Below are positions 1 through 19,801 of a DNA stretch of 20,000 nucleotides, piece by piece; position 1 is the stretch's first letter; the number at the start of each line of letters is the position of its first letter. The translations under genes were made by a program, and so were the position numbers. The DNA comes from Seison nebaliae (Eukaryota). The DNA is taken from the NCBI GenBank assembly GCA_023231475.1, contig JALJEE010000958.1, positions 48,602 to 68,601 of the forward strand, written 5' to 3'. Below the pieces are notes generated by a model. It saw nothing but the letters and a program-made list of their open reading frames with translations. It was not told where the DNA came from and ran no database searches.

Positions 1-2
1 AT

Positions 3-3000
3 GAGAACTTGATTGATCGGATGCATCAGATGGCTGATTTGGTCAATTTGGAGAATACTTGTTTTTGTGACACTTTCCAAGTTCATCCGACTACTGTTCA
101 TGATGAACATTTAACAGAATCATTAATCGATGGTTCAATGAAGAGACGAATGTTTTATTTCGATGACAAGAAGAAAAATGATAGAAGGAAAATGGATTAT
201 TCAAAAATTATCAATAAATATTTCTCGAAAAATAATCAATCGACAGATGAGAAGATTGAGTTGAAGATAATGGAATTGACTGAATCTGAATTGAAATATG
301 AGGAAGATGTTAGAAAAGAATTTCAATTAAATCAATGTCCAATTGTCAATTCAGAATTCCGTTCAACTTCCGCTATTTTATCAATTCCCAAGATTCATTT
401 AAATAAAAAAGATTTCGATTGGGAGAAAGGAAACTTCCAAAAATTATTAAGTGAAAGATTCGGATCATTGATCGCTGAATATGGAGCAGTGTCGTTCACT
501 TTTAATGATTATCATCCGCCTATGATGTTAAATGAGAAAGATGTGAATATTTCAGTACGTCAACAAAATCTCCCGTTGTTAGAACCGAGAAGACGATTGA
601 ATATTATTTTCATGAATGAATTGTTAATGTTTCGAAAGTTTCAAGGATTACCATTCAATATAGAAAGTTTTGAAAAGATCAATAATCATCAAGTCGATTA
701 TTATTTATTATATCGATTAGTTGGAGAAGTGTTTGAAGAAGATGAATTGAAAAGTGAATATTTTTCAGCAAGTCATCTTCATCCATTGGATGAAATGGAA
801 ATAATGAAATGGTTCCGTATTTTCCTTCTCATGCGATTGACGAATGAGCGAATGATTTTATCATTTTCAAAAGAAGAACAATTATTTGATCCACCACAAG
901 GACGGAAAAAAGTATTGTTGAGAGAACAGAAACAAGCGAAAAAGAAGTTTTATGAAAAAATGATGAAATTAACACATCAACTTCGTTACAATTATTTTTC
1001 AGTTCTTCATCCCTTTCTAATTTTCCGTCAACATTATCATATTGGTATTGGTGAATGGACGAGAGATTTGTATTTGGAGAAGATTGGTCAATTCGATTGT
1101 TTAGAAGGAGATGATGGTGAGAGTGGGGAAGCGTCTCGAATGTATAAAGAATTGAAGATGAAAAATCGGAAAATTGAAGATGAAATTAATTTATCGAAAA
1201 TTCATTTTAAAAATTTAATTGAAGAACATAATAAGATGTATGAGGAAGAGAATGATGTGAAAATGATCGAGAATTATGATGTTATTTGTGCGAAATGTAA
1301 AATGAATGATAATGAAGAGAATTTATTATTGTGTAAGAATAATGGATATCATGCATTCCATACATATTGTCTACCAGTAACTTATCGTTTTAGTAATTTA
1401 CCAGATGAATGGTTCTGTTGGGATTGTACAGCGAAACAATTATCCAATTATCTCCCACAACCATACGGATTCCATCATTTTAAAGATCAACAATCATTTC
1501 ATCAATTCTATTCAGCAGCTGTCATTTATGAGAAGAATGTGTTGGAGGAATTGAATGAGAATAAAAAGAAGAAATATGAAGACAATCCAATATCGAATAA
1601 ATTTAAACAAATTACTCCTCATGCATATTATACATGGACGAAAATGGAAACGAATGATCAATTATTTGAATTTCAAAATAAAGAAAATAATATTTATAAA
1701 GATGGAAAAGAGAAATTCGTGATCGATTGGAGAATGACTGTTAATTCTTTCCGTTCAAACAAAGACGGAAATTTACGAGCGTCCACAATTCATCAATTTC
1801 TCACAAATGAGAATGATGAGAAAATGGATTCAATCACTGAACATTCCAATTCAAATCTCGATAATTTCGTTACAGCAGATGAAATTGAAGAAGAATATTG
1901 GAGACGATTCCAATCGAATAATGTCAAATTACCAACTCAAACCACATCATATGGAGCTGATGTTAATACGTCAGATATCGGTTCAGGATTTCCATCAAAA
2001 TATCATCAAATGGAAAAAAGTGAAATTCATGAAAATAATTCAGATTATGAAAAATATTTACATAGTTCTCTCAACATCAACAATATTGCCAATAATGATC
2101 AATCGGCATTCACATTCATTAAACCGTTAATAAACGGTGTTCGACTTCCCTGGTTATATTTCGGTCAATTATTCTCAACTTTCTGTTGGCATACTGAAGA
2201 TCATTTTACTTATTCCATCAATTATCATCATTATGGCGCTCCGAAAATCTGGTATGTTATTCCCTCATTTGCTGCTGATCGTTATGATGAATTTGTGCGG
2301 AATTATGTCCCAGAATTTTTCAAAATCTTTTCTGATTTTACTCATCATTTAACATCAACAATTCATCCAAATATTTTAATTCAACATGGAATTCCAGTAT
2401 ATCGAATTAATCAAATGAATGGCGATTTCGTCATAACTGCACCAAGAAGTTATCATTCAGGATATAATCAAGGATTCAACATCGCTGAAGCTGTCAATTT
2501 TGCTTATGCTGATTGGTTCTGGTGGAGTTTGTTCTCTTCTAGATATTATATAAAAGAATGTCATTCAAATATCTTTTCAATTAATGAATATATTTTATAT
2601 GCATTATCTCAATTTCATCAATTCTCAATAAATGATCGTTTAGAGAAAGTTGAGAATTTGTTAGGAAAAGAAAAAGAAAATTTGAATTATTTTCAAAAAT
2701 TTTCTTATGCAATCATTTCATGTAGTGAACGAGCAATTTATTATGAAAAACAATCTCTCAAAAATTTCTTTTCTTTTATTCTACAACATTTCGAAGTGAT
2801 GTATGATAAGAATGATGGATTTATTGAATGGAATTTGAATTCCATTAATTTCCAATCGACCGGTAATTCGAAAGAGAATCGTTCCAAACAAATTAATTTA
2901 TCAACAAAAAAATTTGATTTCTCTAAAGAAACCAATGACGATCGACGTACATGTTTGAATTGTAATCATACATGTTATTTTAATGCTATTACTTGTTCAT

Positions 3001-6000
3001 CATTCAAATGTTCTTCATGTTCATCTGATATTGGATGTCGTTTATTCTGTTTACAATGTTACAAATATGCCATTGATCATTGTCAATATTATCAGGAGAA
3101 TACTTTCTCATCAATCGATTTAATTCTTTATCATCAATATAATCATTTGGATTTCCAAGAGATTAATACACAAATTTCACAAATTCAAAAGAAACGAGAA
3201 GAATTGAAATATATAGAAAATAATATAAATATCTGTCAATATAATCAATTGGATCTATTAGATTGGATTAAAAAATCGAGTAAAAATAATAAAGAGAATT
3301 ATGAAAAGATTGTTCATTCTGTTAATCGTTTAAGTGAAATGAGAGAATTATTCTTCAAATATCTCAATAATTCAACAACAGAAATTGTTCATAAACAATT
3401 TTATTATTATCATCCTCAACACTCCAAATTAGAGATATCGAATCAATTCAAATATTCATTACAATCAATTCTTCTTTATCGATTTAATGAAATTGAAAAT
3501 ATTTATCTCGCTTTTCGTTCATCCTCCATCGATGATGTTGGATTTTGTAAACAGGAATTATGTTTCGTTCAATTAAATGAGATGGATGAATGGAAATTGA
3601 ATGGAAATGAAATCATCATAATGAATGCATCTTATTTTAATACATCAACCACTTGGTATAGTGTTCAATTGATTATGAAGGAGTTATGGAAATTGGGAAA
3701 GAATGAATATGAAGATATTCCATATAATTCATTCGAATTATGTGACGATATCCGTCAGAAATATTTCAATGGATTCGCCGCCATCTTAATCGAACAACAA
3801 TTCCAATTAGATTTCACCGAATGGTTAAGGACGAATATTCGATATAATTTTTCTTTAGGGAAATTATTTACACAAATCATTTATCGATTAACTGAAAATC
3901 GAAATTTTGATAAAATAAACAAAGTCAATTATCTCCAACGAATTTTAGAGAAATATTTCAATGTGAAATTTGGAGTTAAAATGAATAAATTCTCTTTCCA
4001 TCTCATAAAACAACATTTTAAATGGCGAAGTAGAAAACATCGAAAAATCGTTCTGGACGATATCGAATATTATCTAAATAATGCAATGACATCATTGATG
4101 ACTAATTGTGATTTAATTCCGTTGATAACGGTAATTCATGAAATTTTGAGAGAAAAATATAAAAAAGTTGAAGAATTAAATAATCAGTTTGATGAGTCGA
4201 TTTTACCATCAAAATTGAATAAAATTGTTGATGAATCAATAAAGAAACATGAAAATGGTAAATATTTCCATCCGATTAATGTTGAAGATTTGCCTTCATT
4301 CTCTTCCAATTATTCGATGAAAGATGATGAAGAAAAAATGGAAATGAATTTTATTGGAAATCATCTACATCAATTAGAAGATATTGAAGAACAAATGATG
4401 ATTATTGAGAAGATTTTCTTTTCTAATCCTGATCAAGCATTTGAAGATGTTTCAATTATTTTCTCAGATTATCGTTCGAAATGTGAAAGGATTTTATTAA
4501 TTTATTTATATCTCACATTAATTCGAAATGTTCATGTACAATTAGATTCATTCGATCGAGAGATACATTTGAAAGAATTAGATTTTGTGAAATATTATCG
4601 AATCTATTTTGAGACGATTCAATTCTTATGTGAGAAACATGACGTGTGGAAATGTTGGAAGAATTCGACAATCTATTTCCTATTGAAAGAGAAAGAAGAA
4701 GAATTTAAGAAAGAGAATGAAGGAATTCCACATCCAAATTATCAATCATATATTCTACGTCATTATTTCGCACGATCACTCAATTTCAAATCTTATCGAT
4801 ATATGATTTATTCTCATTTGAAAGAATTGGATATCGGTCCCGCTCATGACGATATGATGGAAGGAGATCATTTACATGGTTTATGTTCTGTCCTTTATAA
4901 TTCCCATCTTTCCTGTCAAGAATATCATGATGTTCATTTGAAAAAATTTATCGCTTTATTGACCGATCCATATGAGGATTATGATAGAAATAATAATCGA
5001 TTATTATATTTAATCAATTCAATTTTTGGTGATGGAACTTCGAGTAAATTGAAGGAATTCAAAGAGAAATTCTTCGTACATAATTCAACATGTTCATCTG
5101 AAAAGAATTTGTTTACTAATTCTTATTGGTCAGTGACAACGCAAATTTTCATGTATCTCATCGCAATTTTATTACGAGAAGATAACGAAAGAATTTTAGA
5201 GAAATTATCAAGTAATGGCAATTGTGATGGATTATCATTTATTTTATATTTGAAAAAGAACGAGAAAAATGAACCATCAATTTTCTCCCAATTACCGTCA
5301 ATTGTTGAAGATTCATTTCATTTCCTTTTAGATCGTTTAACGAAATCGATGGCGTCACTTCTTTCCATTGCTCTTCATTCCTTCTCTTCTCTAACAACAA
5401 TTCAATCTTATATTTGTAAAGAATTATCAAAGACACCGATAACTATGTTGAATTTGAAAGATTTGACAGAGGATCGTGAAAAACAATGGAGAAATATTCA
5501 TACGTCAATCAGTAATATGTTGAAAGGTACTCGATCACTTTTACCCCCATGGAATGAGAATAATTCGGAGAATTTCTTATGTCATAAATTATTATATCTC
5601 CATCCAATTATCGATAGTTATTCGATGGCACAATTATCATTAAATAGATTTTATGGATGGAAATCCAGTTATTCGGTTGATTTATTTTATAAAAAAATTG
5701 AAGAAAATCCTGAAATTAAACATAAGAATGTGTCGAAGAAATCAGGGTCGACATCTAAAACGAAATTTGATGAAGGACGAGAATATTGTTTCGCTGACAA
5801 TCCAAGTAATAAACAACATGAATCATTCTTTGCTCTTCATTTCCCGGAAGAATATGATCAAATTCATCAGAAGAATATGGAGAAAGCGAAAGGCTCTTGT
5901 CCTTCTAAACGGCCACTCGCCCAATATGCATTATCAGCTACAGTATCGGAATTAGTGACTAAATGGTGCAAGAATTATATACGACAACCGTCAGAATATA

Positions 6001-6374
6001 TTACAATCGACATCGACCAAAAACCAGACACTTCATCATTCACAACAGAAATTGAGGAGTCGGAGGACAAATCGAATGAATTGGTTTGGACTCCTTCTAC
6101 AGAGATGAAACCGGACAAACCAAATTTCAGTATCATTAAATGGACATCATCATGCCCCGTCAAAGGAGAATCGGAGAATGACGAAGAGAAAAAAGAAAAG
6201 AATAATCCAAATATTATGTCCAAATGTGAGAATGGACAAAATATGTCCATCAAATTAATTGTCTTATCGGACATAGAGAAATTGGGAGATTCGAACAGAC
6301 AACAATTAGACAACGACCAACATGAGATAAAAACAGAATTTGTTACTCGATTCGTTAACTTATCTGATTTATAA
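3..6374 (+). CDS. KDM5: KDM5/JARID1-family H3K4 histone demethylase (frame open to the left edge, possibly 5'-partial; no intron needed)
   Basis: KDM5 domain order is readable in the translation: JmjN-like (IPKIHL..EYGAVSF..YHPP, ~384-520), ARID-like (~590-1015), PHD1 (CAKC..LLLC..HTYC..WFCWDC, ~1287-1427), JmjC (PWLYFGQLFSTFCWHTEDH..SINY..PKIWY; PRSYHSGYNQGFNIAEAVNF) with intact H-x-E...H iron ligands, and a C5HC2-type finger (~2952-3083). No stop lies upstream of position 9 in this frame; first in-window ATG at 21. Confidence 0.93.
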   Translation, partial: ENLIDRMHQMADLVNLENTCFCDTFQVHPTTVHDEHLTESLIDGSMKRRMFYFDDKKKNDRRKMDYSKIINKYFSKNNQSTDEKIELKIMELTESELKYEEDVRKEFQLNQCPIVNSEFRSTSAILSIPKIHLNKKDFDWEKGNFQKLLSERFGSLIAEYGAVSFTFNDYHPPMMLNEKDVNISVRQQNLPLLEPRRRLNIIFMNELLMFRKFQGLPFNIESFEKINNHQVDYYLLYRLVGEVFEEDELKSEYFSASHLHPLDEMEIMKWFRIFLLMRLTNERMILSFSKEEQLFDPPQGRKKVLLREQKQAKKKFYEKMMKLTHQLRYNYFSVLHPFLIFRQHYHIGIGEWTRDLYLEKIGQFDCLEGDDGESGEASRMYKELKMKNRKIEDEINLSKIHFKNLIEEHNKMYEEENDVKMIENYDVICAKCKMNDNEENLLLCKNNGYHAFHTYCLPVTYRFSNLPDEWFCWDCTAKQLSNYLPQPYGFHHFKDQQSFHQFYSAAVIYEKNVLEELNENKKKKYEDNPISNKFKQITPHAYYTWTKMETNDQLFEFQNKENNIYKDGKEKFVIDWRMTVNSFRSNKDGNLRASTIHQFLTNENDEKMDSITEHSNSNLDNFVTADEIEEEYWRRFQSNNVKLPTQTTSYGADVNTSDIGSGFPSKYHQMEKSEIHENNSDYEKYLHSSLNINNIANNDQSAFTFIKPLINGVRLPWLYFGQLFSTFCWHTEDHFTYSINYHHYGAPKIWYVIPSFAADRYDEFVRNYVPEFFKIFSDFTHHLTSTIHPNILIQHGIPVYRINQMNGDFVITAPRSYHSGYNQGFNIAEAVNFAYADWFWWSLFSSRYYIKECHSNIFSINEYILYALSQFHQFSINDRLEKVENLLGKEKENLNYFQKFSYAIISCSERAIYYEKQSLKNFFSFILQHFEVMYDKNDGFIEWNLNSINFQSTGNSKENRSKQINLSTKKFDFSKETNDDRRTCLNCNHTCYFNAITCSSFKCSSCSSDIGCRLFCLQCYKYAIDHCQYYQENTFSSIDLILYHQYNHLDFQEINTQISQIQKKREELKYIENNINICQYNQLDLLDWIKKSSKNNKENYEKIVHSVNRLSEMRELFFKYLNNSTTEIVHKQFYYYHPQHSKLEISNQFKYSLQSILLYRFNEIENIYLAFRSSSIDDVGFCKQELCFVQLNEMDEWKLNGNEIIIMNASYFNTSTTWYSVQLIMKELWKLGKNEYEDIPYNSFELCDDIRQKYFNGFAAILIEQQFQLDFTEWLRTNIRYNFSLGKLFTQIIYRLTENRNFDKINKVNYLQRILEKYFNVKFGVKMNKFSFHLIKQHFKWRSRKHRKIVLDDIEYYLNNAMTSLMTNCDLIPLITVIHEILREKYKKVEELNNQFDESILPSKLNKIVDESIKKHENGKYFHPINVEDLPSFSSNYSMKDDEEKMEMNFIGNHLHQLEDIEEQMMIIEKIFFSNPDQAFEDVSIIFSDYRSKCERILLIYLYLTLIRNVHVQLDSFDREIHLKELDFVKYYRIYFETIQFLCEKHDVWKCWKNSTIYFLLKEKEEEFKKENEGIPHPNYQSYILRHYFARSLNFKSYRYMIYSHLKELDIGPAHDDMMEGDHLHGLCSVLYNSHLSCQEYHDVHLKKFIALLTDPYEDYDRNNNRLLYLINSIFGDGTSSKLKEFKEKFFVHNSTCSSEKNLFTNSYWSVTTQIFMYLIAILLREDNERILEKLSSNGNCDGLSFILYLKKNEKNEPSIFSQLPSIVEDSFHFLLDRLTKSMASLLSIALHSFSSLTTIQSYICKELSKTPITMLNLKDLTEDREKQWRNIHTSISNMLKGTRSLLPPWNENNSENFLCHKLLYLHPIIDSYSMAQLSLNRFYGWKSSYSVDLFYKKIEENPEIKHKNVSKKSGSTSKTKFDEGREYCFADNPSNKQHESFFALHFPEEYDQIHQKNMEKAKGSCPSKRPLAQYALSATVSELVTKWCKNYIRQPSEYITIDIDQKPDTSSFTTEIEESEDKSNELVWTPSTEMKPDKPNFSIIKWTSSCPVKGESENDEEKKEKNNPNIMSKCENGQNMSIKLIVLSDIEKLGDSNRQQLDNDQHEIKTEFVTRFVNLSDL

Positions 6375-8527
6375 ATTAAATTTCTTTCCATTTATTTTTA
6401 ATCTTTCCATTCATTTCTTATCGTTTTTCTATAATTTTTATATTCGTCTGACTTGAAAAATTGTTTGGAAAATGGACGTCGAATTCGAATTAAATGTTTA
6501 CCATTTTCTCTCCATCACTTTTCAACTATCAATTAATTAATTGTAAAATATCTATTTTATAAGATCTGATATTTTCTATTATAAGTAAAACTAATCATTA
6601 ATCAAACAAGTCAAAAGTGGTAGAGATTTTTGCACTTTTCTTTATTTACTGAAATTCTTCTTCCAAATCCATCGTGCCACACCCACTCTCTTACTAAAAT
6701 AAATTTTACATTTACCTTAATTTCACTTACAAAACATTTACTTGTTAAACATTTATTCTTCATGAAATTTAATTAGTTTCATTATTATTACGTCTGATAG
6801 TTACAGAAGAAAAAACAAATTCATTATGAATATGGAGATGGTGCAAGAAAAACATGGAAAAACAAAATTTAGTTTTTATTAAAATGAAGAAAATGAACAT
6901 AAAATTAATATGTAAAATTTTCACAAGATACTATCATGTTTTTCAGTATTCGAACATTCGATTTTAGCACATACGAATAACGAAGCGATATCACTTACGG
7001 AAATGAAGAAAATTGAATTTTCTTATGTTTTAATTATTTATTGAAAGGAAATAAAAGTAGTTGAGAAGTAAAATTTATCGAAGAAAAACCATAAGAAAAC
7101 ACATGTAAATATTTCTTATTATTCTATTACATTTTCCCTCGAAACTTGATGTTTTTTAAAAGATTTATTATAACGATTAGAATAGAATAATGGTTATTTG
7201 TGTTATTAGTATTGTACTCTATCAGTGGTACGTCGTCATCATCATAACGTCATTATTTGAAATAATGGTGATGACAGCAGCAAATGACAATAAAAAAAAA
7301 TGAACACTTTCTGATAAGAGTTAGATAATAATAAGACACCTCTGCTTGGTGAAAGGTTATTAACGGAAATTTCTTCGTTAATTACTCTTAAATAAATAAA
7401 TAATTAATCTTACTCTTTTCCCATCATAATAATATGTGCAGGAGTGCATCATAAACGGAAGATGGAGAAGTTGTTTAAGAAATGAGAATTATGTTTTAAT
7501 AACTGCAGTTTGACCTTAATTAATTATTTGTATGTTACATATATTCATGTATACTCAAATAAATATCTTCATTCCCTTCAATATTTTTTATTGAAAATTT
7601 TTCATTGGTGATGGTGGTAAAGGTAATCGTCAATAGTTTTTCCACAAGCCAATTCGATATATCTAATGAAAGTATTTCGAGAGATAAGATCATTCAAGGT
7701 ACTTTCACTCTTCTTTGAAGAGATGACTCATAAATTATTATGTGAATAAGATTAAGAAATATCAACCACTTCCCTCTCAAGGAAAATATTGATACATTTA
7801 AAAGAAAAATGGACAATTAACTGAGAAGTTATGACGTATTCCGATTAGATCATTTGTTATGTAGTGCTAGATTTTTCTTTCTAACAATTTTCCAATGTTA
7901 ATTTGTTAATTCCCAGAATTAATAGAATTGAGAAGGAAATTGTCGTTGTGCTAGTTACAAAGAAATGGTAGAGAATTGTTTTCGAAAATATTCTCCTTAA
8001 TCGGAAAACAACAAAAATATTTTGATTTGCATTCCATCCATCGATATTCAATATGTAATGGTTCTCCTTGAACATGAACAGTATGAGAAGTGAACAATGA
8101 TTGAAGAAGAAATGAGAATTAATAAGAAAAACAAAAAGAAAAGAAGGAGGAAGAGAAGAAACGGGTTGATCTCAATAAGTTGTGAAGGAAAAGCTTAATT
8201 TCATCAGTTAGATATGAATAGAATGAAGGGAGAACATTAATCCAAAAATTATTTTTAATAAATTCCATTTTTTCTATTTGTAATTTTTTAATAATTTTCT
8301 TCCATTATACAAAGTTTTCCTATTTAATTCTTCGAAATCCATTCAAAAAATTTAGTCGAAAAATCTATTGATTATTTTTGAAATTTCCAAATTCTTTTTA
8401 AAATAAATTTTCAGAGCTGCTTCTTTTTCACATATTCAATTGGGAGGAAGTTATCCAATTAAACTTCATTCCAGAACGACGATCAATCGTCGGTAATGTA
8501 TTCTTCTGGTAATAGCGGCAAATATTC

Positions 8528-10606
8528 ATGTCTGATATTAGGCATTCAGTTCTCTCATCCATAACTGGGGACATTGGTCTATTTCCTGGAGATCATGACC
8601 ATTCAGTTTATGGAGCTGAACAAGACACAGGAACATTCTCATTTAGTCGTTTCTTCTTCCCACAATTATTACCTCGAGACAAAGCAGATGGAGAAACAAA
8701 TCGATGGAAATCTGCTCGATTACTCTATCATAATCGTCATTTTGTTGCAGGATGGTTGGGTGGCGCTGCAGGAATTTTGGTCGGTCATCCATTCGATACG
8801 ATTAAAGCGAGACAACAAACATCTCAATATAATATCAGTGTTTATCATACAGCGAAGGATTTGATCCGAAGAGAAAAGATGAGTGGTTTTTTCAAAGGAC
8901 TCTCATTTCCCATTGTTTGTTATGGAGGAATTAATTCCATATATTTCGGCGTTTATGGTTATACTCTCCAATTCATATCTAAACAACGTAATCGTTCAAC
9001 GGAAAATGAGACGGTTCAACATAAAAAAATGACATCTATTGTTTGTGCATCATTCTTATCAGGTGCCATCGCTGCCATTCCCACATGTCCAGTGGAAGTG
9101 ATAAAAATCCGTTTACAAATCGATAAAACCGCTCATCCCACTCGTTTAGCACGACTCATTTTAGATCCGTCATTAATGGTCCAATCAACAGTTCAGTCAC
9201 ATCTACATAAAACTTTCATTTCACCTGCACTACCAACACCAGATCGTATGACAAATCTATTAATTGCTCAACAACAACATGAGAAACAGATAACGGGATT
9301 GAAGAATCTTCAACGAATGGAATATGAAAGACAAAAGAAAGAATTAGTTTATCGAAAATCACTTCGATTTCATTTGTTCAATGATATAGGTCGTCATCGA
9401 AGATCATTACAATTATCACCATTCACATTATTATCTCGTCCATTCGTCCCATCAGCACATCATGCTAGACATCGTTCTCGAATTGATCGTTATAAGAAAT
9501 TGATGAATACAAATTCATTATTTCATCGATCACCATCATCGACAGTAACAGCGAGACTCTTTCCAAAATATCTAACGGTGAATGAATCGTTTTCCAATCG
9601 TCATACAATTCGTCGTCGTCATATGTTATCGTCAATAGAGAATTCGGTGAATAATAAACAACATTCCAGACGAGTGATGTCTCAAATGATGGATACGATT
9701 ACTCACATTAAACATGTAGCACCTGTTTCACATACTCACTTCTATATCACTTCAGAACAGAAGGACAACAATATTAGCAATACAAATAATTCAAAAAAAT
9801 TGGAGAACAAGTCAAACTTTGTTCTTGATCGAAAATATCATCATCGAAAAGCCAAATTACATCGTCGTGTCAAATTACAAGACATTCAATGGAAAGGTCA
9901 AAATCTTGTGGATTCAGTGAAGAAATCAGTTGCTGCATCTGCATCGAAAGAAATGAGAATTAAGAAATTCTTTGTTACTGATCATTATTTGCAAATGGCT
10001 GCCAGAGCGAGAGTCACTTTATCACGATCAGATCATTTAGCTTCCTATAATGTTATTCGACAAAACTTGTCTCCCAAAATTTATGCGGACACTTACCAAG
10101 TCAACATGCCAACTACTTCACACGCAGCCAATCTTCGACCAGTCGATACTCCTTATTCTATATTGAGACAATTAATAAGAGAACGAGGAATATTTCGTGG
10201 ACCATTTCATGGTCTCGGCACTCAATTATGTCGCGATGTTCCCGCTCTTGGATCTTATATGCTCTGTTACGAATATTTTATGAGTCGTTCTCCCGCTTTC
10301 GTCAAGAATGCGAATGGACAACATTCGACTTGGTATGTCATCATTGCTGGTGGTCTAACTGGTTGCATTAGTTGGGTAATGACAATGCCACAAGATGTGG
10401 TCAAAACGAGAATGCAAAGCGATCATTTACTTCAACCAAAATATCGAAGTATGTTCGATTGCTATTGGCGAGTGTGGAAATATGAGGGAGGAGTTCGTAC
10501 TTTCTTCCGAGGAACATTAGCTGCCACAATTCGTGCATTTCCTTGTAATGCTGTTACTTTTTTATTGTACGATCGTCTTCTAAAGTATTTGTCGAATTTT
10601 AAATGA
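8528..10606 (+). CDS. SLC25A45: Mitochondrial carrier (SLC25), SLC25A45/A48-like, 692 aa with a large internal insertion
   Basis: Three Px[DE]xxKxR signatures (PFDTIKARQQ, PVEVIKIRLQ, PQDVVKTRMQ). FVAGW..GHPFDT and GFFKGLSFPI resemble SLC25A45/48. RD in helix 4 (LCRDVP) and RAFP.NA in helix 6 are typical of the amino-acid/carnitine-type carrier group. An in-frame TAG at 8513-8515 precedes the ATG. Confidence 0.85.
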   Translation: MSDIRHSVLSSITGDIGLFPGDHDHSVYGAEQDTGTFSFSRFFFPQLLPRDKADGETNRWKSARLLYHNRHFVAGWLGGAAGILVGHPFDTIKARQQTSQYNISVYHTAKDLIRREKMSGFFKGLSFPIVCYGGINSIYFGVYGYTLQFISKQRNRSTENETVQHKKMTSIVCASFLSGAIAAIPTCPVEVIKIRLQIDKTAHPTRLARLILDPSLMVQSTVQSHLHKTFISPALPTPDRMTNLLIAQQQHEKQITGLKNLQRMEYERQKKELVYRKSLRFHLFNDIGRHRRSLQLSPFTLLSRPFVPSAHHARHRSRIDRYKKLMNTNSLFHRSPSSTVTARLFPKYLTVNESFSNRHTIRRRHMLSSIENSVNNKQHSRRVMSQMMDTITHIKHVAPVSHTHFYITSEQKDNNISNTNNSKKLENKSNFVLDRKYHHRKAKLHRRVKLQDIQWKGQNLVDSVKKSVAASASKEMRIKKFFVTDHYLQMAARARVTLSRSDHLASYNVIRQNLSPKIYADTYQVNMPTTSHAANLRPVDTPYSILRQLIRERGIFRGPFHGLGTQLCRDVPALGSYMLCYEYFMSRSPAFVKNANGQHSTWYVIIAGGLTGCISWVMTMPQDVVKTRMQSDHLLQPKYRSMFDCYWRVWKYEGGVRTFFRGTLAATIRAFPCNAVTFLLYDRLLKYLSNFK

Positions 10607-11087
10607 TTTCATTCCATTATTGTTTCATATTTTGAACAGATATTATTATCTATTCATCGATTGATCACCGTCTTTTGATAATTATCAATTATTATTCATT
10701 GATATCAACAATTATATTTCTATTATATTAGTCTAATAAACGAACAAACTACGAACATCTAATTTTTTCTCGTTATAACAAACTTATAATTTCTGCATAA
10801 TATTATTTAAATGAACAAAATAAAAATTTAAAAATTAAAGTTTTATAATAAAATTAAGAAAATCAAAAATTATTTTACTTTCACTCATCAAAAAAATATT
10901 TTGTTGTTCCACCGAAATAATTTAGAATTTACTTAATTGCTTTTTATTCAGGAAATTATTAGAAAATCATCATTTAAGAGGTTTGACTAATATAATGATC
11001 AATTTTATGAGTAATAAAAGTGTGAAAGAGTTAAAAAAAAATAGTTCAATTTACAAATAATGAAAAGAAGTTCGTGTGGAATAAATA

Positions 11088-11508
11088 TTAGTAGTGTTTA
11101 CGTTGATGATAATTTCGACGATGGCGACAACGTAATGGAGGAAGTTCTGCATCGAAAAATACAGAATCATCATCTGTCGATATGCTAACGAATTGGTTTA
11201 TGGTATCTGATTGTGAGACGAATACCTCACTAGTAGGAATAGAAAGAGTAGTGGTTGACTGGTTCTCTTTATAGATCAAAGTGATAAAATACGAAGATGT
11301 AAGGAAAGTAGAAACTTGTCTTAGGTTTCCTTGTTCTTTTCGCTCGAGGATAAGAACGTTTTTTACGTTCTTTGTTAGATGAGAGAAAGAAGACTTTCAC
11401 TAATCGAACTGCAATGACTGAGAAGAGAATAGTAAATATGAAAACGGCCAAAGAATTTTGTCGGCACCAATAGGAAATATAAATAATGAAATTGTTTGGT
11501 ATGCGCAT
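11088..11508 (-). CDS. Small single-TM protein, 123 aa, 2 exons (11508-11316, 11266-11088), with a basic post-TM stretch and an FFAT-like motif
   Basis: Two adjacent minus-strand ORFs join in frame through a 49-nt phase-1 intron, 11315-11267 (GTTTCT...TAAAG). Product has a hydrophobic segment (LAVFIFTILFSVIAVRLVKVFFL), a K/R-rich tract and STDDDSVFFDAEL. No homolog recognised, so the model rests on frame logic and intron similarity to neighbouring genes. Confidence 0.6.
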
Positions 11509-11808
11509 TTTTCATCGCAATACGAAAATGGCCGTTAAAGAAAATTTCATTTCGAAGTTTTTATAAAAGCAAATTTTATTTATTGGAAAGAAGAGGAAGA
11601 TAATTAAGAAATTAAAGAAAAAAAAAATTTTTTTTCTGATTGATTTTTTTTGAAAGAAAAAAAATTGTTAAAAAATTAATATTTTATAATTAAATAACCG
11701 AATAAATCCTTCAAATATCACTACGAGTAAAATGATCATGCAATCATTATTAAATTCATATGAATTATTTTCAGTTCCCAATTCATCAATTTCCGAAGTT
11801 GAATTAAA

Positions 11809-12315
11809 TTACTTCTTCTCAACTAACGAATCCATCTGGTTCAAATAATAACGTCCGGTGTATAAGAACAAGAAAGCGGAGCCAGTGGCGATTCCTATTT
11901 TCACTGGACATCCTCCTCCACCTTTTATTGCTCGACCGGTTACTTTGCACGTGGCACTGGTAGCAGAACGAGCGGTAGCCCATGCCAACATGGAACCAAA
12001 TGTGAACATCGTGGAAGTGAAAAGAGACATCGTTAATGTTTTCCTGTTACATCCACATTTCCCGTCATTAATCGCTTTCATGTGTGGACGTCCGGCAATA
12101 TAAGCCATCAGACCAAGATTTGAACCGAATAGAAGTACATTGGCCATTGTGCCTCCATAAGAACCGAATAGACGGTCAAAGCTTGGTGGGCAGATAACGT
12201 GAATAGACAATGGAAAATAACAAGCCACTCCAACATACGGTGCACATTTCACACACATAGAAATCACCTTGCAAATCGGTTTAGGCATTGGACATTCTTT
12301 CTTCTCTTGAGACAT
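11809..12315 (-). CDS. Uncharacterised small multi-pass membrane protein, 168 aa, Cys-rich, intronless
   Basis: Clean ATG-to-TAA ORF that is clearly more GC-rich than its flanks, with about four hydrophobic segments and 10 Cys. The segments GRPHM, FGSMLAWA and YLNQMDS are reminiscent of an uncharacterised invertebrate membrane-protein family (recollection, not verified). Confidence 0.8.
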   Translation of the reverse strand: MSQEKKECPMPKPICKVISMCVKCAPYVGVACYFPLSIHVICPPSFDRLFGSYGGTMANVLLFGSNLGLMAYIAGRPHMKAINDGKCGCNRKTLTMSLFTSTMFTFGSMLAWATARSATSATCKVTGRAIKGGGGCPVKIGIATGSAFLFLYTGRYYLNQMDSLVEKK

Positions 12316-12819
12316 TGTTGTTGATCAAATGAAAATGAAATGAGAAAAACTATTGCAATATCCGCTTCTTTCAATTAATGATATATAAGCTAACATATGA
12401 TATTTTGTATCAGAGATTAGAAATAGAAGTTATCCAAATTCATTTCAGACAATCAAAGAAATCCTTCTTCGATTTTGTTCGATTCTAAATATTTAGCTAG
12501 ATAATCTCGAATCAAATTTAACGAATTTCATTTCAGACGAAAATTAAATAATTTAATTTGTTTGAAAATCTACAAAATAATTTTAAGAGTGACTATCATA
12601 TAACAAAGAGAAGGAGAATATGAGATATATTAATTTATCATAATAATGGTTGTCATGACCACGGGAGAGCATTTAATGAAAATATCACTTGTTTTACAAC
12701 ATAATTCTTAATAGGTCAATGACATGACGAATCAATCACATGCTGCGAGTCGATTGTGAAATGCAGGTTCATATTTTCTGTTAGATAAAATTATTAGTCA
12801 ATGATTCTATTCAATCGTT

Positions 12820-15444
12820 ATGATGTCCTTAAAGAACAGCTTAATACTTCTACTTTCTCTCCAATTAATACAAAAATCTCATTTGCAAAGTTTCGTCTCT
12901 ATGAATAAAGCATTTATTGAGTTGGAACATCTGTTGACTGATCTGAACATTGGAACTATGGTGTTTCCTGACCTACAACCAAAAAATAATGTTAAAACTC
13001 AAATTGTTGAATTGTCAACACATCAATATCGATTGGGTTTAGCAAATTTGGCATCGAAACTCAACATAAAAATTAGTATACTTCCCAGTGTTACGAATTA
13101 TTTGAAACCGGTACGATTACTCCAAGGAATCTATTTCGTATTAAATACATATTATGTCAGATATCCATCACCACACATTCGACATCGACAACGTCCGATA
13201 ATTGTCGTAGTGAACTCGAAAACATTAACTGAACTAAATCATTATATTCCATGTAGTTTCTTCATTATTCCACCAATAATTTTCCTAAATTTCGATAGGA
13301 CGAAAGTTTCAACGAAAAAATTTCCATTCATCGAAATTTTAGCGAGTCCTCTGGAACAAGTCAGTTTAACTATTCAAGTTCCCGATCAGTATAAACGGAT
13401 AACTTACAAAGAAGCTCGACATGATTTGAATAATTCATTACAAGCAGTCATCGATACTTTCATTCAAGGGAAAGTACTTATGTACAAATCATTACCAGAT
13501 AAAATATATCATCAAGAGATGTATAATTTTTATCGGAAACATTTAAATTTCTATAATATTCATAAATCTGAATGTGATTGTGTATTGAGGTCCAATTCTT
13601 GGTATCAATGTGTACAAGATCAAGTGAGAAGTTATCTTCCAATTTATTCTCCCAAACACCCACCACCTGGATACAACGGAAGAAATTTCGTCCGAGTCGC
13701 TATGAAAATCAGTCCACCAAATACCATTTATTTAAATGGACAAAATTTACAACTGCATACGAACAAATCCATTCTCATTACAAAGCAATTACTAAGGAAC
13801 ATTACAGGATATTATTGTGAAATTCTTAAAATGATTCTTTATGATTATGAGTTGGAGATTTTTTAAAATTATTTTAAATTAAATTATTGTTATTTTAACA
13901 AATACCTAAACTTTAACAGTTTTGAAGTGGTCATACAAAGTGATTCAGTTCCTTTTGGTAATTTGGATAAGAAGACCGGATCATTAAACGGAATAGTTGG
14001 TTTAGTGGAGAAAGAAGTTTGTATTTGGTGTACAATTTCTTTGTAGTAAATGAGAAATATTTGAAAGGAGTTCGATATTGCCATACCAATCAGTGCGACA
14101 ATGGAACGAAGTCATCATGTAAATTTCCTCGAATATCTTTCGTTCGATCCATTGGCAATGCTCTTCGTCGATCAAGTGGAACAGAAATTTACACTTCAAT
14201 CATTATTCTCGGTGTATGAAGGATTGACGGCAAACTTATGGTTCTTGTGGTTCATCTCATTAATAATCTTCTCCTTCGTTCTTTCGAAATTGAATGAGAT
14301 TGAACAGAATTTTAATGTCTATCGATTATATATTCAAATGAGAAGTGAACAAAATTATGTAGGAGAAGTAATCTCGTTTCGGAGAGTGTGTAAATACATG
14401 AAAATATTAGATGGGAGAATCAGACCCACATTCTGCAAAGATCTAAGTATCAAATACAATGTGAAGAATATTCCAGGAAAGCGAATTCTTTACAGAATAT
14501 CTCGAATGAGTCGTCTACCAAAATTACTTTCGTTTGGGAAAATTTTTCTTTATTCTATCGCTAAATTTACTGGAGCAAGTTTAGATCTGTTTTCAATTTC
14601 GTCTTATCACTTGTTCTTATATAAATATAGATTATGGAATTGATACAAAATATTTTTTATCCCGATTCATTATGTTGCTTTGGTGGAGTTTGTGCACAGT
14701 GGTACTCATCTGTTTCACTGCCAATACTGCTGCACATGCTACTGTTAAGGATAAAACTGTCATTTTAAAATCATTCGCTGAATTAGCAGAAAGAAGTGAT
14801 TTAGTCCCAATGATGTTCAACCAAAGTAGTACTCATACAATATTTAAAGTTTATCTTCCATCTTATCTATTATATAATTTGTAAATTTCACAATCTGATA
14901 TTATGTAAAAAAAAAGTTTTCTAAAGAATATCCTTATCCAGAAGTTTTAGCAAAAGCAAAATTAATTTCAAATTATGAAGAAATGATGTATAGAGTATTT
15001 TATGAGAATGGTGTTTTCATTTCAGCAATGGATAGTATCGTCTATATCGCTAACACTTATTGCGGATTGAAACATTTATCAATCAAGAGTGGATATCTTG
15101 GTCAAGGCATGGCGATACCATTCGATTTTCTTCATTCAAATGTATTATCTGCTCGGTTTCCCTTCAATTCATTTTATTAATTAAAAATTCAAATTTTTAA
15201 AATTTAATCAAGAATATTAAAACTATCAGAAAGTGGTGTGGCATCAAGATTTCGACAACAATTTTGGCAGAAGAAATCCGCTTGTAAGAGGTTATTCCCG
15301 ACAAAAGATTACATCATCTCGAACACAGACAATTTTTTCCGGAACAATATCGGATATTTCATTTCTATTATAATCGGTCTCATCATTTGTCTCATTATTT
15401 TGGTAATAGAACTGTTTTATTTTAAATTTAAGAATAAACATTGA
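12820..15444 (+). CDS. Divergent ionotropic glutamate receptor / IR-like ligand-gated channel, ~775 aa, 6 exons (12820-13850, 13920-14016, 14068-14578, 14631-14848, 14917-15155, 15213-15444)
   Basis: The spliced product has a signal peptide, S1 (ITGYYCEIL..FG..GSLNGIVGLV..EFDIAIPISATMERSHHVNF), M1 (NLWFLWFISLIIFSFVL), M2, M3 (SRFIMLLWW..CFTANTAAHAT), S2 (SFAELAE..SSTH..GQGMAIP..ILKLSESGV..FW..C) and M4 (NIGYFISIIIGLIICLIILVIE). Five introns (13851-13919, 14017-14067, 14579-14630, 14849-14916, 15156-15212) restore a 2328-nt open frame. Confidence 0.88.
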
Positions 15445-15499
15445 ACAACGCTTTTTAAATTCGAAGTAAATAATAATCTGTAAATATAATTTTTAATCT

Positions 15500-17942
15500 T
15501 TAATTTATCATAATCTTCTCTCGTAATTTAGCACGACCGCCTTTGTGCAATTCGTAATATCGTGCTAGATCTTTCCGCGTGATAATTCCAACAACTCGAT
15601 AACTTCCATCCACAACGATTAGATGTCTGAGTCCCATTCCTCGGAATAATTGGAAGATTCGTGGTAACATTGTCCGATAACTAATTGAGAATGGTGAACG
15701 ATCAATATATGGAGTAAGATCTATTCGATCATTATTCAAATTGAGTATCTTTTCTCTAACATTCTCAATTGATGGATATCGAGGATAATAAAGGAGGAAA
15801 TCGGTTAATGTCAATGAATTCGGTTGATTCGCTAAAATGATTGCAATTAATTGATGTCTTAAAATAATCCCATAAAGTACTTTATTGTTGTTGTTATTCT
15901 TATTTTTTATATCGATCTCATGATCGTGTTTGATTCCACTGTGACTTTTATTGGAAAAGACTTTGGGATGAGAAGAAGATACGGAAACGATAGGAAATGC
16001 TGACGATGTTGTATTTAATAGAACATTGAGAATATCATGTCGATAAACAATAATATTAAACATATTGACTGGATGAGTCATGACTTCCATTGCCGATATG
16101 GTTTTGGTAGATGATAACGGTTCCCAATCAAGAAATGGTACTGAAGTCAAATCGATATGCATATCGAATATTCCTTCATTGAATATGTCACCGAAAAATT
16201 TCGCAGTTGTCAAACAAATGATTAGAGGTAAATTTAATGATATTTCACCAGTCGCTTCCATAATGATGACGGCGAGAGATAATGTCATTCGAACATTACC
16301 AGCTAATTGTGCAGCAGCACCCATTAATGCATAAACACTAATATTAGCTTGATATCCGAATATATGATATAAAGACAATCCAAATGCACGTCCCCAAGTG
16401 GCACCACAAAGAATTGACGGAATGAATAATCCACTCGGTACGTGACAACCATAAGTGGTCGTTGCTAACAAGAAATAGATGAGAGCGAAAACGATTAATG
16501 TTGTCAAATGGAATGTTTCCGATTGATCGTGTAAAATACTTTTCACACTTTCCTCCCACGTTTGCATCCAAAGTAATGCCATCGAACTCATTTCTCCATC
16601 CATGCATCGAATCTGCACAGGATGTTTAATATCATCCAAACCAAATGGACGACAATCATTCCATAGAACGGTGAGAACTAATGGAATTAATGATGAGACG
16701 ATTGCTAGAACGATACATTCGATTAATCTTGAAAATTTCTCTTTTATATATTTTTGACGGAAGATTGTCAGATGTTTATTTATCGCATTAAAAATAACAC
16801 CTTTAAATTAATCAAATTATAAATAGATTGAAATTGGAAAATTAACGAACCTAACGCTCCACCAATAATCCCGATAGCGAAAAAAGCAAATATATCAATT
16901 CCATTGTAATGTGGATCGAGAAACTTGCCAAAACTTAATAATCCTGGATTGGAAAAATCACCAAATTTACTACTCACTCCACTCAACACGAGATTGAGTG
17001 TGAAAGTGGAAAATAATGAAGAAAGAAACTTTAAAAAAAAAATAAATTTAACATAAAAATAAGAAAAATTATAATGAAACAATTTCCCAAGTTAACGATT
17101 GATTCCAAAAACTGGCACCTTCTTCTAAGCTAAACAAGACACCTCCAATTGGTGCACCGAAAGCGGCAGCTACACCAGCAGCCGCTCCAGCTGAAACGAA
17201 ATCTCTTTTATCTTTATCGTTTCTGAATGAATGGAATAGACCACAATCGAATTTAAGTGAAGAACTCATTCCTTGTGTTAGACCAGCTCCAATGACTGAA
17301 CCGGAATGTATCATCGGTCCTTCTTTTCCCACAGCTAATCCACCTGCCACACTGAAACAAACACCGAATACTTTAGCGATTAATGTACTTAATCGAACGA
17401 CTCTTGGCATTTTCACGCCATTCAGATAACATTTAATTTCCGGTATACCGGAACCTTTTGCTGCCGGTTCCCAATAAGCGACGAGAATTCCAGAAATTAA
17501 TACAAATGATACACTGATCAATACCCACATGAATGCACTATGATATGTACAAGAATGGAAGACGCAATGATTTAAACCTTTATCAAAATTACATTCATAT
17601 AAAAATATTTTATTTGAATAATAATTGAAAAACTTTTTTGTATAAACGAATATTTAATTTCCGCCAATTTATTCACCAACAAACCAATAATCACTCCGAT
17701 TAAACCGGTAAGAATTCCGATCAATAACATCAAAACCCATTTCATAAAATATTTATAACGATTATTCTTTTTGGATTAGCAATACAATTGAGATGAAATG
17801 AAAGAAGTTATGAAACTGCTAATGATTTATTTTTTATTTCTTCCACTAACTGCAATTCATTATTAACTTCAACATAATCCAGACCCTCGAATTTCGACGA
17901 GATAAGATGCGATCCATGAATATTCAACGGAACGACTTTCAT
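15500..17942 (-). CDS. CLCN7: ClC-7-like H+/Cl- exchanger with C-terminal CBS domains, ~744 aa, 5 exons (17942-17817, 17766-17634, 17577-17081, 17028-16851, 16800-15500)
   Basis: Motifs [77 protein letters not shown] and CBS2 [19 protein letters not shown]. Four introns (17816-17767, 17633-17578, 17080-17029, 16850-16801) give a 2235-nt open frame. The start at 17942 is tentative, since an upstream exon is possible. Confidence 0.92.
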
Positions 17943-18480
17943 TCTTTCATACACCACGAATCATAAACATTCAATTCATAAGATAAATAAAGGATTTGTT
18001 TATCTATTTCTCATTGTCGTGAACTAAAGGAAAATAAATCGAACTATTTGGATAGATCACTCATTAATTCAAAGTTGACTTGTCTGGCTACTCATTCAAA
18101 ATTGGCTATGTAATAAATCATAATATTGTTTCCTATTTAAATTAATTTCTTTCAAATTAATTAATGATTTTTATTCAATTTTTTCCAATAACTCAACAAA
18201 CAAATTTTCTTATTAATTTCCTGTTCATTTCTTAATTAATAACTAAAATATTACGAATAAATAATAAATAAAAAACAATCTCAACTATTATTTTCATCTT
18301 TAAAGTATTTTTTATTTATCGTAATTTTTTTTTTATGATGCACAACTATGAAGGAGAAAGTAGATGGGAAAAATTATAGAAAATGTTCGAAATAATGAAA
18401 GATAATTTGGAAAGATGTTGGACATTCATATTCATTAAGGCATTTGTATATAATTAATAAAATAAATTAAATATTTTATT

Positions 18481-19047
18481 CTAATAACATTCCGCCTCGT
18501 GAAACAATGAAGTTTTCAGTTCTTTTCCCGTCATACAATTAATTTCATAAAATTGACATTTGTCACACAATTCTTCGCAGTGTTCTTCGTAATTGTCATC
18601 AAGAATATCGAATTTTTTGAAATATTGTTTGATTGGTATCTGTGAATGGAATTTAGAATAAATATATGATGATGATGCAACTTGATCATAAGGAAAGACT
18701 GAGGTGCGGCATATTTTACATTTCTGTCCCCAATTACTCCAAGTGACGGTGGAGTTCCATCGGTGGTTGCACTTCGAACAGTTGAAGGCGCCAAATGCAC
18801 GAGATTTACCCTGATATTCCGTCAACGTGTTATTCAGATCTGTTACCATTTCTTCGTCATCTGAAATTAATTCTTCTCGTTGATATTCATTCTGAGCACC
18901 TAATTAATATAAAACTAATTTGTTCCTGAACAGTATTTATAATTTATAACCTATATATTTATAATTTGGTATTCCGAAACAATTCCATGTAGCTAATCGA
19001 CTGCTTAATGATTCAATGAATCTATGACCTATCCTTTTCGTCATCAT
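18481..19047 (-). CDS. ZCCHC24-like 3CxxC-type zinc-binding-domain protein, ~157 aa, 3 exons (19047-18951, 18899-18682, 18639-18481)
   Basis: LTEYQGKSRAFGAFNCSKCNHRWNS..W.N.GQKCKIC..VFPYDQ|IPI..EHCEELCDKC..C follows the C-terminal domain of ZCCHC24 (LTPYQG..R.FG.Y.C..C..W.S..W...Q.C..C...VYP..Q.PL...H...LC.KC). Introns 18950-18900 (GTTA..TAG, phase 1) and 18681-18640 (GTTG..CAG, phase 0, no stop). Confidence 0.8.
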
Positions 19048-19247
19048 TTAAAATTCTTGTAAATTTTCCTTCACTATATAGTCCTATATTCAATTGACTA
19101 ATTACCAAAATAAACAAAATTTTTTAAGATGTTGAATGTCGAATATTTATTTATCTAAACAGTTTATCTCTAACATTTATCTATAAGAAATAGTAATTTT
19201 GATTAAAGTGTAATATTCAAATAATATGTAATCAACTGAACATGGTA

Positions 19248-19334
19248 CTCGCGATAGCTCAGTTGGTAGAGCGGAGGACTGTAGAAATTGTATCAGAGAT
19301 CCTTAGGTCAGTGGTTCAAATCCGCTTCGCGAGA
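19248..19334 (+). tRNA. tRNA-Tyr (anticodon GTA) with a 14-nt intron (19285-19298)
   Basis: Acceptor stem CTCGCGA/TCGCGAG plus discriminator A; D arm GCTC-AGTTGGTA-GAGC; anticodon arm GAGGA-CTGTAG[intron]A-TCCTT with GTA at 19281-19283; T arm AGTGG-TTCAAAT-CCGCT. Mature length 73 nt, with the intron at the canonical 37/38 position. Confidence 0.97.
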
Positions 19335-19338
19335 TAAA

Positions 19339-19346
19339 TTTTATTT
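19339..19346 (+). terminator. Probable RNA polymerase III oligo-T terminator of the tRNA gene
   Basis: TTTTATTT starts 5 nt after the discriminator base. T-runs are common in this AT-rich DNA, so support is positional only. Confidence 0.5.
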
Positions 19347-19512
19347 ACTATAATTGTAATGTAGGTAAAGTTTATATTGGTTTTTAAGAAATTTTAGGGG
19401 AAATAACGTTTACGTGGCAACAATAGAAAGTAAATATCTATTTAATAGAATTAGCGTTAATGAAATTAATTAATCAATTAAATTTCCATTAAATGAATCT
19501 TCCAAGATGAAA

Positions 19513-19801
19513 TTAGGCCTTTCGGCATCCTTCACAGCATTCATCTTTCTTGTATTTTTTTTGTCCTGGAGGGCATTGAATTGGGGCACATTTTGGGACA
19601 CATGATATATCGTCGATTGTTTCACCACAAGTGCATTGTGAACACTTTGGAAGCATGTCAGCATATTTATCACAATTATCTGCTCGGCTATAAGCGATTG
19701 CTAATAAATCCAAATGAAACAATTATTATTAACATTAAAAAAATTTAAGAGTAACCGGTAATGAAAAGGAAAAGGAGAGTAATGAATTTAATTCCGAACA
19801 T
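19513..19801 (-). CDS. Small secreted single VWC (von Willebrand factor type C)-domain protein, 77 aa, 2 exons (19801-19756, 19700-19513)
   Basis: A 55-nt phase-1 intron, 19755-19701 (GTTACT...ATTAG), joins a signal peptide (MFGIKFITLLFLFITAIAYS) to a 10-Cys module, C-x9-C-x2-C-x-C-x8-C-x3-C-x4-C-x11-CC-x2-C, which contains the CxxCxC and CCxxC hallmarks of VWC. Confidence 0.82.

Follow-up and report, generated by a model that had tools for sequence, protein, structure and literature searches.

How a 3′ splice site is chosen from a three-letter signal is a still-open question. The canonical spliceosome already reads this site via the intron's own 5′ end: in the docked step-2 state G-1 pairs with G+1, A-2 pairs with the branch adenosine and U+2 lies with U6 (10.1101/212811). 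In the yeast P complex the base at -3 is read as a pyrimidine by Prp8 Gln1594 (Wilkinson et al., 2017, 10.1101/212811), while +4 faces or pairs with U6 in the solved spliceosomes as they are described there and in PMC9803359. An indirect effect of donor +4 on which acceptor is chosen has also been described (Parker et al., 2022, PMC9803359).

The window considered here, meaning the whole stretch of 20,000 nt that was analysed, carries an intron set of 13 introns in five genes. It comes from Seison nebaliae, a tiny marine animal and relative of the rotifers. All 13 coordinate pairs delimit GT..AG segments of 42-69 nt, whose first four and last three bases are those given by a first-pass annotation of the sequence, including the two exceptions to the rule that it proposed. 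Under that rule, donor base +4 is complementary to acceptor base -3, and this is the case in 11 of the 13 introns (5.69 expected, exact permutation p=0.00085), which reproduces the count of 11, the chance expectation of about 5.7 and the p of about 0.001 obtained earlier. We consider an end-matching rule probable, on the basis so far of only the 13 introns that suggested it.

Transcript evidence came from the GMAP alignments of Trinity transcripts in supplementary file 2 of Mauer et al. (2021, PMC8351084), whose rows on contig k141_475 are offset by 48601 from window coordinates. Eight of the 13 introns are transcript alignment gaps exact to the base; the predicted boundaries thus agree with published cDNA at these eight, and biased picking of boundaries is rejected for them. 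One lies in a small gene with no Pfam match (11267..11315, minus strand, GTTT..AAG, 49 nt, complementary), where a gap of 49 nt (D49) is accompanied by a retained isoform. Four belong to a CLC-7 gene on the minus strand, of which introns 1 (17767..17816, 50 nt, gap D50 plus a retained isoform), 2 (17578..17633, 56 nt, gap D56) and 3 (17029..17080, 52 nt, gap D52) are complementary GTTT..AAG introns, and intron 4 (16801..16850, GTTC..AAG, 50 nt, transcript gap) is an exception. A homology-only aligner blind to +3, +4 and -3 recovered introns 1, 3 and 4 in 12/12 runs and intron 2 in 11/12, and on this ground boundary-picking bias is rejected for CLC-7 as well. The same aligner placed a false fifth CLC-7 intron in 7 of its 12 runs, at a point where the transcript is continuous. 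The 3CxxC zinc-ribbon gene, also on the minus strand, has two complementary introns present in NCBI model P0121, namely intron 1 (18900..18950, GTTA..TAG, 51 nt, gap D51) and intron 2 (18640..18681, GTTG..CAG, 42 nt, gap D42), the latter being in frame and without a stop. The last of the eight (19701..19755, minus strand, GTTA..TAG, 55 nt, complementary, gap D55) interrupts a small secreted Cys-rich (VWC-like) gene as its sole intron, and the frame joined across it begins like a signal peptide and matches VWC weakly.

The remaining five junctions lie in an ionotropic-receptor-like gene on the plus strand, for which no covering transcript was found among the 42 rows listed for k141_475, and are given only by reading frame and NCBI model P0122. 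Intron 1 (13851..13919, GTTG..CAG, 69 nt) introduces an in-frame stop if retained and is complementary, as are the GTTT..AAG introns 2 (14017..14067, 51 nt), 4 (14849..14916, 68 nt) and 5 (15156..15212, 57 nt), while intron 3 (14579..14630, GTTT..TAG, 52 nt) is the second exception. Intron 2 has an alternative GAG 3 nt downstream of its acceptor. A comparison of the receptor protein with metagenome contigs gave 211 pattern matches and no relatives. Model P0122 also contains a sixth, non-complementary intron (14376..14423, plus strand, GTTT..CAG, 48 nt), which we reject since it is in frame, has a GC content of 35% (10-29% in the introns) and shows coding-like differences in a diverged low-depth copy. 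This copy differs at the donor G and at base -3, and 9 of 11 differences fall at third codon positions (one contig at depth 5.4, with 40 of 727 differences listed). The segment is probably coding sequence and a prediction artefact of P0122; counting it as an intron would give 11/14 complementary (p=0.0021). No further introns were supported by six-frame reading of 6350-8540 or seen among the transcript rows listed, those at 5926-6322, 7420-7987 and 11558-12408 being ungapped. Four sequencing runs, compared over a stretch that excludes the intron at 19755-19701, yielded no splice joints, only DNA-like contigs or nothing, which is uninformative on expression, and a term search of the PMC10125929 supplements and of PMC8351084 supplementary file 1 returned no intron sequence. 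All 13 segments are real introns with real divergent splice signals.

The splice code of these introns is reduced, as is clear from comparison with 73 control introns from other eukaryotes. A T at +3 was claimed to be invariant and is so, every intron starting with GTT, whereas +4 is only mildly T-biased (T8 G2 A2 C1) and G+5 occurs in 3/13 against 51/73 controls. These donors are not of the GTRAGT type complementary to U1/U6 (purine at +3 in 0/13, A+4 in 2/13), they match the consensus at 2-6 of 9 positions, and GTTTGT occurs once. The U12-type donor consensus is RTATCCTT, from which the GTT start of all 13 sets them apart. No snRNA genes were found in the window. At the other end no fixed pyrimidine is found at -3 (A8 T3 C2), with a pyrimidine in 5/13 introns against 67/73 controls and an A in 8/13 against 6/73, and apart from GAG this position follows the background of local AG sites (A127 T71 C34 G57). 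The first-pass annotation had proposed that a fixed YAG and a pyrimidine tract are both dispensed with; this stands for the YAG and only in part for the tract, as the pyrimidine share at -15..-5 ranges from 0.27 to 0.91. A YTRAY motif is present in 9/13 introns at scattered distances, in AT-rich sequence and without a shuffle control. Neither +4 nor -3 has a consensus of its own, and their covariation in spite of this is what a constraint to pair would produce.

The complementary introns comprise seven T-A, two G-C and two A-T pairs. Among 90 donor/acceptor position pairs the next best has p=0.058, making the peak specific to +4/-3, and against a background null the match has p=0.00016. The control introns show no such link, with 16 complementary where 17.3 were expected (p=0.74), and of the nine controls starting with GTT only three match. 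Complementarity does not extend beyond +4/-3 in any of five registers across the 13 introns, and the claimed lack of covariation at +5/-4 is borne out by a single complementary case in 13. An alternative +k/-k register fits the GTTT..AAAG class and is weaker overall (+4/-4 in 9/13, p=0.073). The composition of the ten flanking bases, judged by eye, does not track pair type.

We tentatively propose, with somewhat less than even confidence, that the ends of genuine short GT-AG introns pair briefly and so help the 3′ end to be captured and checked. The spliceosome would be aided in this by U+3 pairing with A-2 and base +4 with base -3. The earlier version of this idea, a 3-bp helix of U+2.G-1, U+3-A-2 and N+4-N-3, conflicts as stated with the docked step-2 state; because +4 faces U6 and -3 contacts Prp8 Gln1594 the two cannot coexist, and any pairing must therefore be earlier or transient. 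It may occur in a protein-held state preceding final docking, either during intron definition or as 3′ sites are sampled before step 2, in a register that would put G-1 opposite U+2, one base off its final partner G+1. Two pairs and a wobble have no stability by themselves and would need proteins to keep them in place. With U1 and the U6 ACAGAGA box finding little donor sequence past +3, the bases at +3 and +4 may be free for the acceptor of an intron of about 50 nt. It can further be suggested, again at a little below an even chance, that the 5′ end of the Seison intron replaces protein and snRNA readers of the 3′ end, a variable Watson-Crick +4/-3 pair stacked on U+3-A-2 acting in every intron as a one-base donor-acceptor key. 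An altered Prp8 alpha-finger at the Gln1594 position, or altered second-step factors, would be predicted, as would a scarcity of C at +4, whose partner would be the disfavoured GAG. Any pairing would be a preference on top of first-AG scanning and not absolute, two of the 13 introns breaking it, one RNA-supported (GTTC..AAG) and one model-supported (GTTT..TAG). In all 13 introns the acceptor is whichever AG comes first beyond 38 nt from the donor, internal AGs are depleted (6 observed, 12.4 expected, p=0.014), and in the intron at 18950-18900 a complementary TAG 36 nt from the donor is skipped. The expectation that +4 chooses among competing AGs accordingly finds no case in the window, where first-AG scanning explains every acceptor.

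This success of scanning also suits a reading in which the match is a post hoc coincidence on a relaxed code, one with a GTT(T) donor preference like that of Entamoeba, lost pyrimidine selection at -3, where base composition then decides, and a 3′ site set by the first AG once a minimum intron length is reached. We hold this to be a serious possibility, though short of probable, given 13 introns in five genes, a within-gene shuffle p of 0.10 (8.6 expected, low power) and a family-wise p over the 90 pairs of only 0.017, when a great many windows were scanned. If the T-A majority class is set aside, four introns carry the case. In yeast, losing the -3 contact suffices for AAG and GAG to be allowed (Prp8 Q1594A, PMC12707134), and the GUUUGU donors of Entamoeba occur with no end-pairing rule in the accessible part of their report (10.1101/2022.06.08.495308). 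Against coincidence stand the exact permutation result, which holds in the RNA-supported subset (7/8 complementary, p=0.006), the complementary base at -3 in all four introns with G or A at +4, and a peak register that adjoins the invariant U+3/A-2.

The bases could also covary without touching, if the classes GTTT..AAG, GTTG..CAG and GTTA..TAG each relied on their own snRNA or protein variants, or if U6/+4 strength set which -3 base is accepted. This is unlikely, as it gives no reason for Watson-Crick complements in all three classes, and the +4 effect in Arabidopsis was independent of the -3 base (PMC9803359). Very unlikely, in our judgement, is a relic of transposition, in which the terminal inverted repeats of an introner or MITE left the ends complementary. 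Introns that arose from transposons and have inverted ends are known. End-pairing is moreover general in the non-canonical introns of euglenids and diplonemids (PMC12621601). In Seison, however, complementarity stops at +4/-3, whole introns fold weakly (0 to -7.6 kcal/mol, without a shuffle control) and the exon ends share no duplication. One of four CLC-7 intron positions is common to other eukaryote loci, and it is that of intron 2, a matched intron found at the same codon and phase in three of them, which therefore predates Seison.

Brief pairing of the intron ends, if true, would mean that these ends can communicate directly, with thousands of natural test cases, and would point to enabling changes in Prp8, U6 and second-step factors. 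An animal splice code would then be seen for the first time to consist in end-to-end covariation and not in one consensus for each end, and a donor-acceptor capture step absent from solved spliceosome structures would come to light. The claim is directly testable on public data, which comprise the genome, mapped transcripts and a second strain. Neither complementarity between +4 and -3 nor the splice sites of Seison were the subject of any paper found in our search of openly accessible articles, bioRxiv supplements apart, and the end-matching rule is apparently undescribed. Even without the covariation, an animal with invariant GTT, G+5 in so few introns and mostly AAG acceptors, with RNA support, was not found in the literature searched.

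Several described systems resemble these introns in part. Canonical U2 step-2 docking likewise reads the 3′ site via the 5′ end and branch A, with GT and AG invariant in both; its pairs, however, are non-Watson-Crick and join invariant bases, whereas in Seison -3 is mostly A and tracks +4 by Watson-Crick complementarity (10.1101/212811). In the U6 m6A/donor +4 control of Parker et al. (2022, PMC9803359), +4 also influences the choice of a nearby 3′ site, but does so through U6 helix strength, between proximal and distal sites, independently of -3 and without complementarity. Entamoeba shares U+3 and mostly U+4 in its GUUUGU donors, with which its U1 has co-evolved (Roy and Bowser, 10.1101/2022.06.08.495308), but these donors are near-uniform with G+5, branch points are strict and the accessible text reports no -3 link, while Seison varies at +4 and +5. 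The 5′ and 3′ ends of euglenid and diplonemid non-canonical introns can pair too; those introns lack GT-AG, have longer stems and are perhaps non-spliceosomal, in contrast to the GT-AG introns of about 50 nt described here, with at most three terminal pairs and no extended stem (PMC12621601). Lastly, Fritillaria borealis is likewise an animal with strongly diverged signals, a U2-type spliceosome and first and last intron bases constrained as a pair, but there the terminal dinucleotides themselves change, whereas Seison keeps them and its covariation is internal, at +4/-3 (PMC13326754).

The 13 introns of the window, all GTT..AG, are carried by five genes: the plus-strand ionotropic-receptor-like gene (Pfam Lig_chan, Lig_chan-Glu_bd; introns between 13851 and 15212), CLC-7 (Pfam Voltage_CLC, CBS), a 3CxxC zinc-ribbon gene, a small secreted Cys-rich gene and a small gene without a Pfam match. 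As the first-pass annotation had claimed, donor base +4 is complementary to acceptor base -3 in 11/13 introns, with 5.69 expected (exact p=0.00085), the exceptions being GTTT..TAG (14579-14630) and GTTC..AAG (16850-16801). The match holds among RNA-supported introns (7/8 vs. 3.12 expected, p=0.006), with a doubtful extra intron counted in (11/14, p=0.0021) and against a background null built from the non-coding sequence of the window (p=0.00016). When +4 to +12 was scanned by -3 to -12 (90 pairs), the sole peak was +4/-3 (runner-up p=0.058; family-wise p=0.017), and the reported lack of +5/-4 covariation was borne out, with complementarity in 1/13. The statistics behind the end-matching rule are good; the rule is specific and as yet unreplicated, and we think it rather probable that +4/-3 covariation extends genome-wide in Seison nebaliae.

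All 13 intron segments show the terminal bases claimed for them, and the introns are 42-69 nt long with 10-29% GC. Published GMAP alignments for Trinity transcripts are provided by the available part of Mauer et al., 2021 (PMC8351084). Querying this transcript table with the lengths that the window predicts for its exons and gaps led to contig k141_475 (offset 48,601, which is the length of the contig less 20,000), where the GMAP rows contain gaps equal to the intron, to the base, in 8/13 cases; for two of these eight a retained-intron isoform is also present. No receptor gene transcript was found among the 42 rows listed for k141_475. Retention of any of its five introns gives a stop or frame shift, and all five agree with NCBI model P0122. 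A protein-to-genome aligner scoring only GT/GC..AG, with 12 non-Seison CLC-7 proteins as queries, recovered three CLC-7 junctions in 12/12 runs and a fourth in 11/12, and the same alignments contained a false fifth intron in 7/12. Model P0122 (SNEBB_000495) also requires a sixth receptor intron, GTTT..CAG at 14376-14423 (+), in frame, rule-breaking and absent from the first-pass list. This candidate was rejected: it has 35% GC, and its donor G and -3 base are altered in a diverged low-depth copy. Third codon positions account for 9/11 differences from that copy (one contig; among 40 of 727 differences listed). The segment is probably coding, with 16 codons wrongly removed by the model, and gene predictors may miscall introns in Seison nebaliae. 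In sequencing runs X1 and X2, compared with window 1-19200, low-depth contigs show ~80-88% identity to coding regions, the diverged copy being another strain or paralogues.

The window is AT-rich (26-35% GC) and densely packed with genes, encoding the Seison nebaliae proteins SNEBB_000495, 000496, and 000497, which NCBI places on a 68,601-base contig, and its intron-rich genes adjoin long genes without introns. A 2,123-codon intron-free open frame at 3-6371 (+), extending past the window start, is KDM5-like with PHD and JmjC domains. The intron-free mitochondrial carrier frame at 8516-10603 (+) has 696 codons, long for its family, and a long His/Arg/Ser-rich insertion separates the carrier repeats. 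Ungapped transcripts span an intron-free 168-codon membrane-protein-like frame without a Pfam match at 11812-12315 (-) and, over 568 nt, 7420-7987, where no reading frame stands out. The 3' end of the minus-strand CLC-7 transcript overlaps the final codons of the receptor gene (15399-15441). Rfam detects a tRNA at 19248-19334 (+; 59 bits) that ARAGORN does not call; on visual inspection it looks like tRNA-Tyr containing a short intron.

Within the window, the divergence of the splice code can be taken as established. Donors are GTT in 13/13, with T8 G2 A2 C1 at +4, G+5 in 3/13 and G at exon base -1 in 4/13. A fixed YAG acceptor is indeed not kept, as proposed earlier: -3 is A8 T3 C2 (-4 is A10), a composition near that of background AG sites, GAG set aside, and selection for a pyrimidine at -3 appears lost. 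The introns behave as U2-type, keeping GT-AG and lacking the donor-consensus and YAG features. Internal AGs are scarcer than expected (6 vs. 12.4, p=0.014; 3 vs. 5.1 within the last 20 bases, p=0.22) and all end within 38 nt of the donor, so that in every intron splicing takes the first AG past that distance. Among the skipped sites, the TAG at 36 nt in intron 18950-18900 is complementary to its own donor. The suggestion that +4 selects among competing AGs found no backing, as no case in the window favors pairing over first-AG scanning.

Controls were drawn from metagenome contigs scanned by CLC-7 alignment (79 loci). The same aligner called 88 introns on which four or more of the five query proteins agreed, and removing 5 in-frame stop-free introns and 10 duplicates left 73 from 30 loci. 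In these 73, +4/-3 is complementary in 16 vs. 17.3 expected (p=0.74), and in 3/9 GTT introns; T+3 occurs in 9/73, G+5 in 51/73 and A-3 in 6/73. The match is not generic, which is all that such mixed eukaryotes with computed boundaries can show. When acceptors are shuffled only within genes, a low-power test, the expectation rises to 8.6 (p=0.10), which fairly cautions against treating thirteen introns from five genes as independent draws. Chance atop a relaxed splice code is a serious, if doubtful, contender, and indirect class effects are an unlikely source of the Seison covariation. Seison CLC-7 intron 17633-17578 is old, because its codon and phase are common to introns of three CLC-7 loci from other eukaryotes (L005, L008, and L031), and two further CLC-7 positions presumably equal human CLCN7 introns; a transposon relic is a very improbable origin for the pattern. 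At locus L005:640-1759, which of 103 queries is matched best by Brachionus CLC-7, acceptors are AAG in 2/4 introns and the ends match in 1/4. From these acceptors, the relaxed -3 may predate Seison.

Pairing of the intron ends themselves had been proposed as a three-pair helix (U+2.G-1, U+3-A-2, N+4-N-3) choosing the 3' splice site. In the yeast P complex, as far as the source describes it, G+1 partners G-1, G-1 is stacked against the U6 base A51, itself paired with U+2, the branch A pairs with A-2, and Prp8 Gln1594 reads the -3 pyrimidine (10.1101/212811); trypanosomatids are described with the same G and A pairs (PMC13601561). Removing the Gln1594 side chain reportedly relaxes -3, with more AAG and GAG use (PMC12707134). 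Donor +4 lies opposite the middle A in the ACAGA box of U6, and the strength of this contact is described as shifting acceptor use irrespective of the -3 base (PMC9803359; PMC11732430). The helix cannot be the docked state because these solved contacts occupy its bases; the earlier interpretation is partly supported, by the specific +4/-3 match and not by this helix as a docked state. We tentatively lean toward a transient pairing before docking, in which proteins would hold brief U+3/A-2 and +4/-3 pairs. The donor, which no longer has the bases to form a helix with U1 or U6 past +3, could pair with the acceptor, and end pairing would then be a preference layered over first-AG scanning.

Among the papers listed in searches of largely open-access literature, bioRxiv supplements aside, none described +4/-3 complementarity or the splice sites of Seison, and passages of PMC10245619, PMC10125929 and PMC13161344 contributed nothing on the question. 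Among described systems, as far as the available parts of each source go, Fritillaria copes with diverged intron ends through changed U2AF and snRNA methylation (PMC13326754). Euglenid and diplonemid introns also pair their ends but, unlike Seison, without GT-AG (PMC12621601). Entamoeba donors share U at both +3 and +4 with most Seison donors, but they are uniformly GUUUGU and have a matching U1 (10.1101/2022.06.08.495308).
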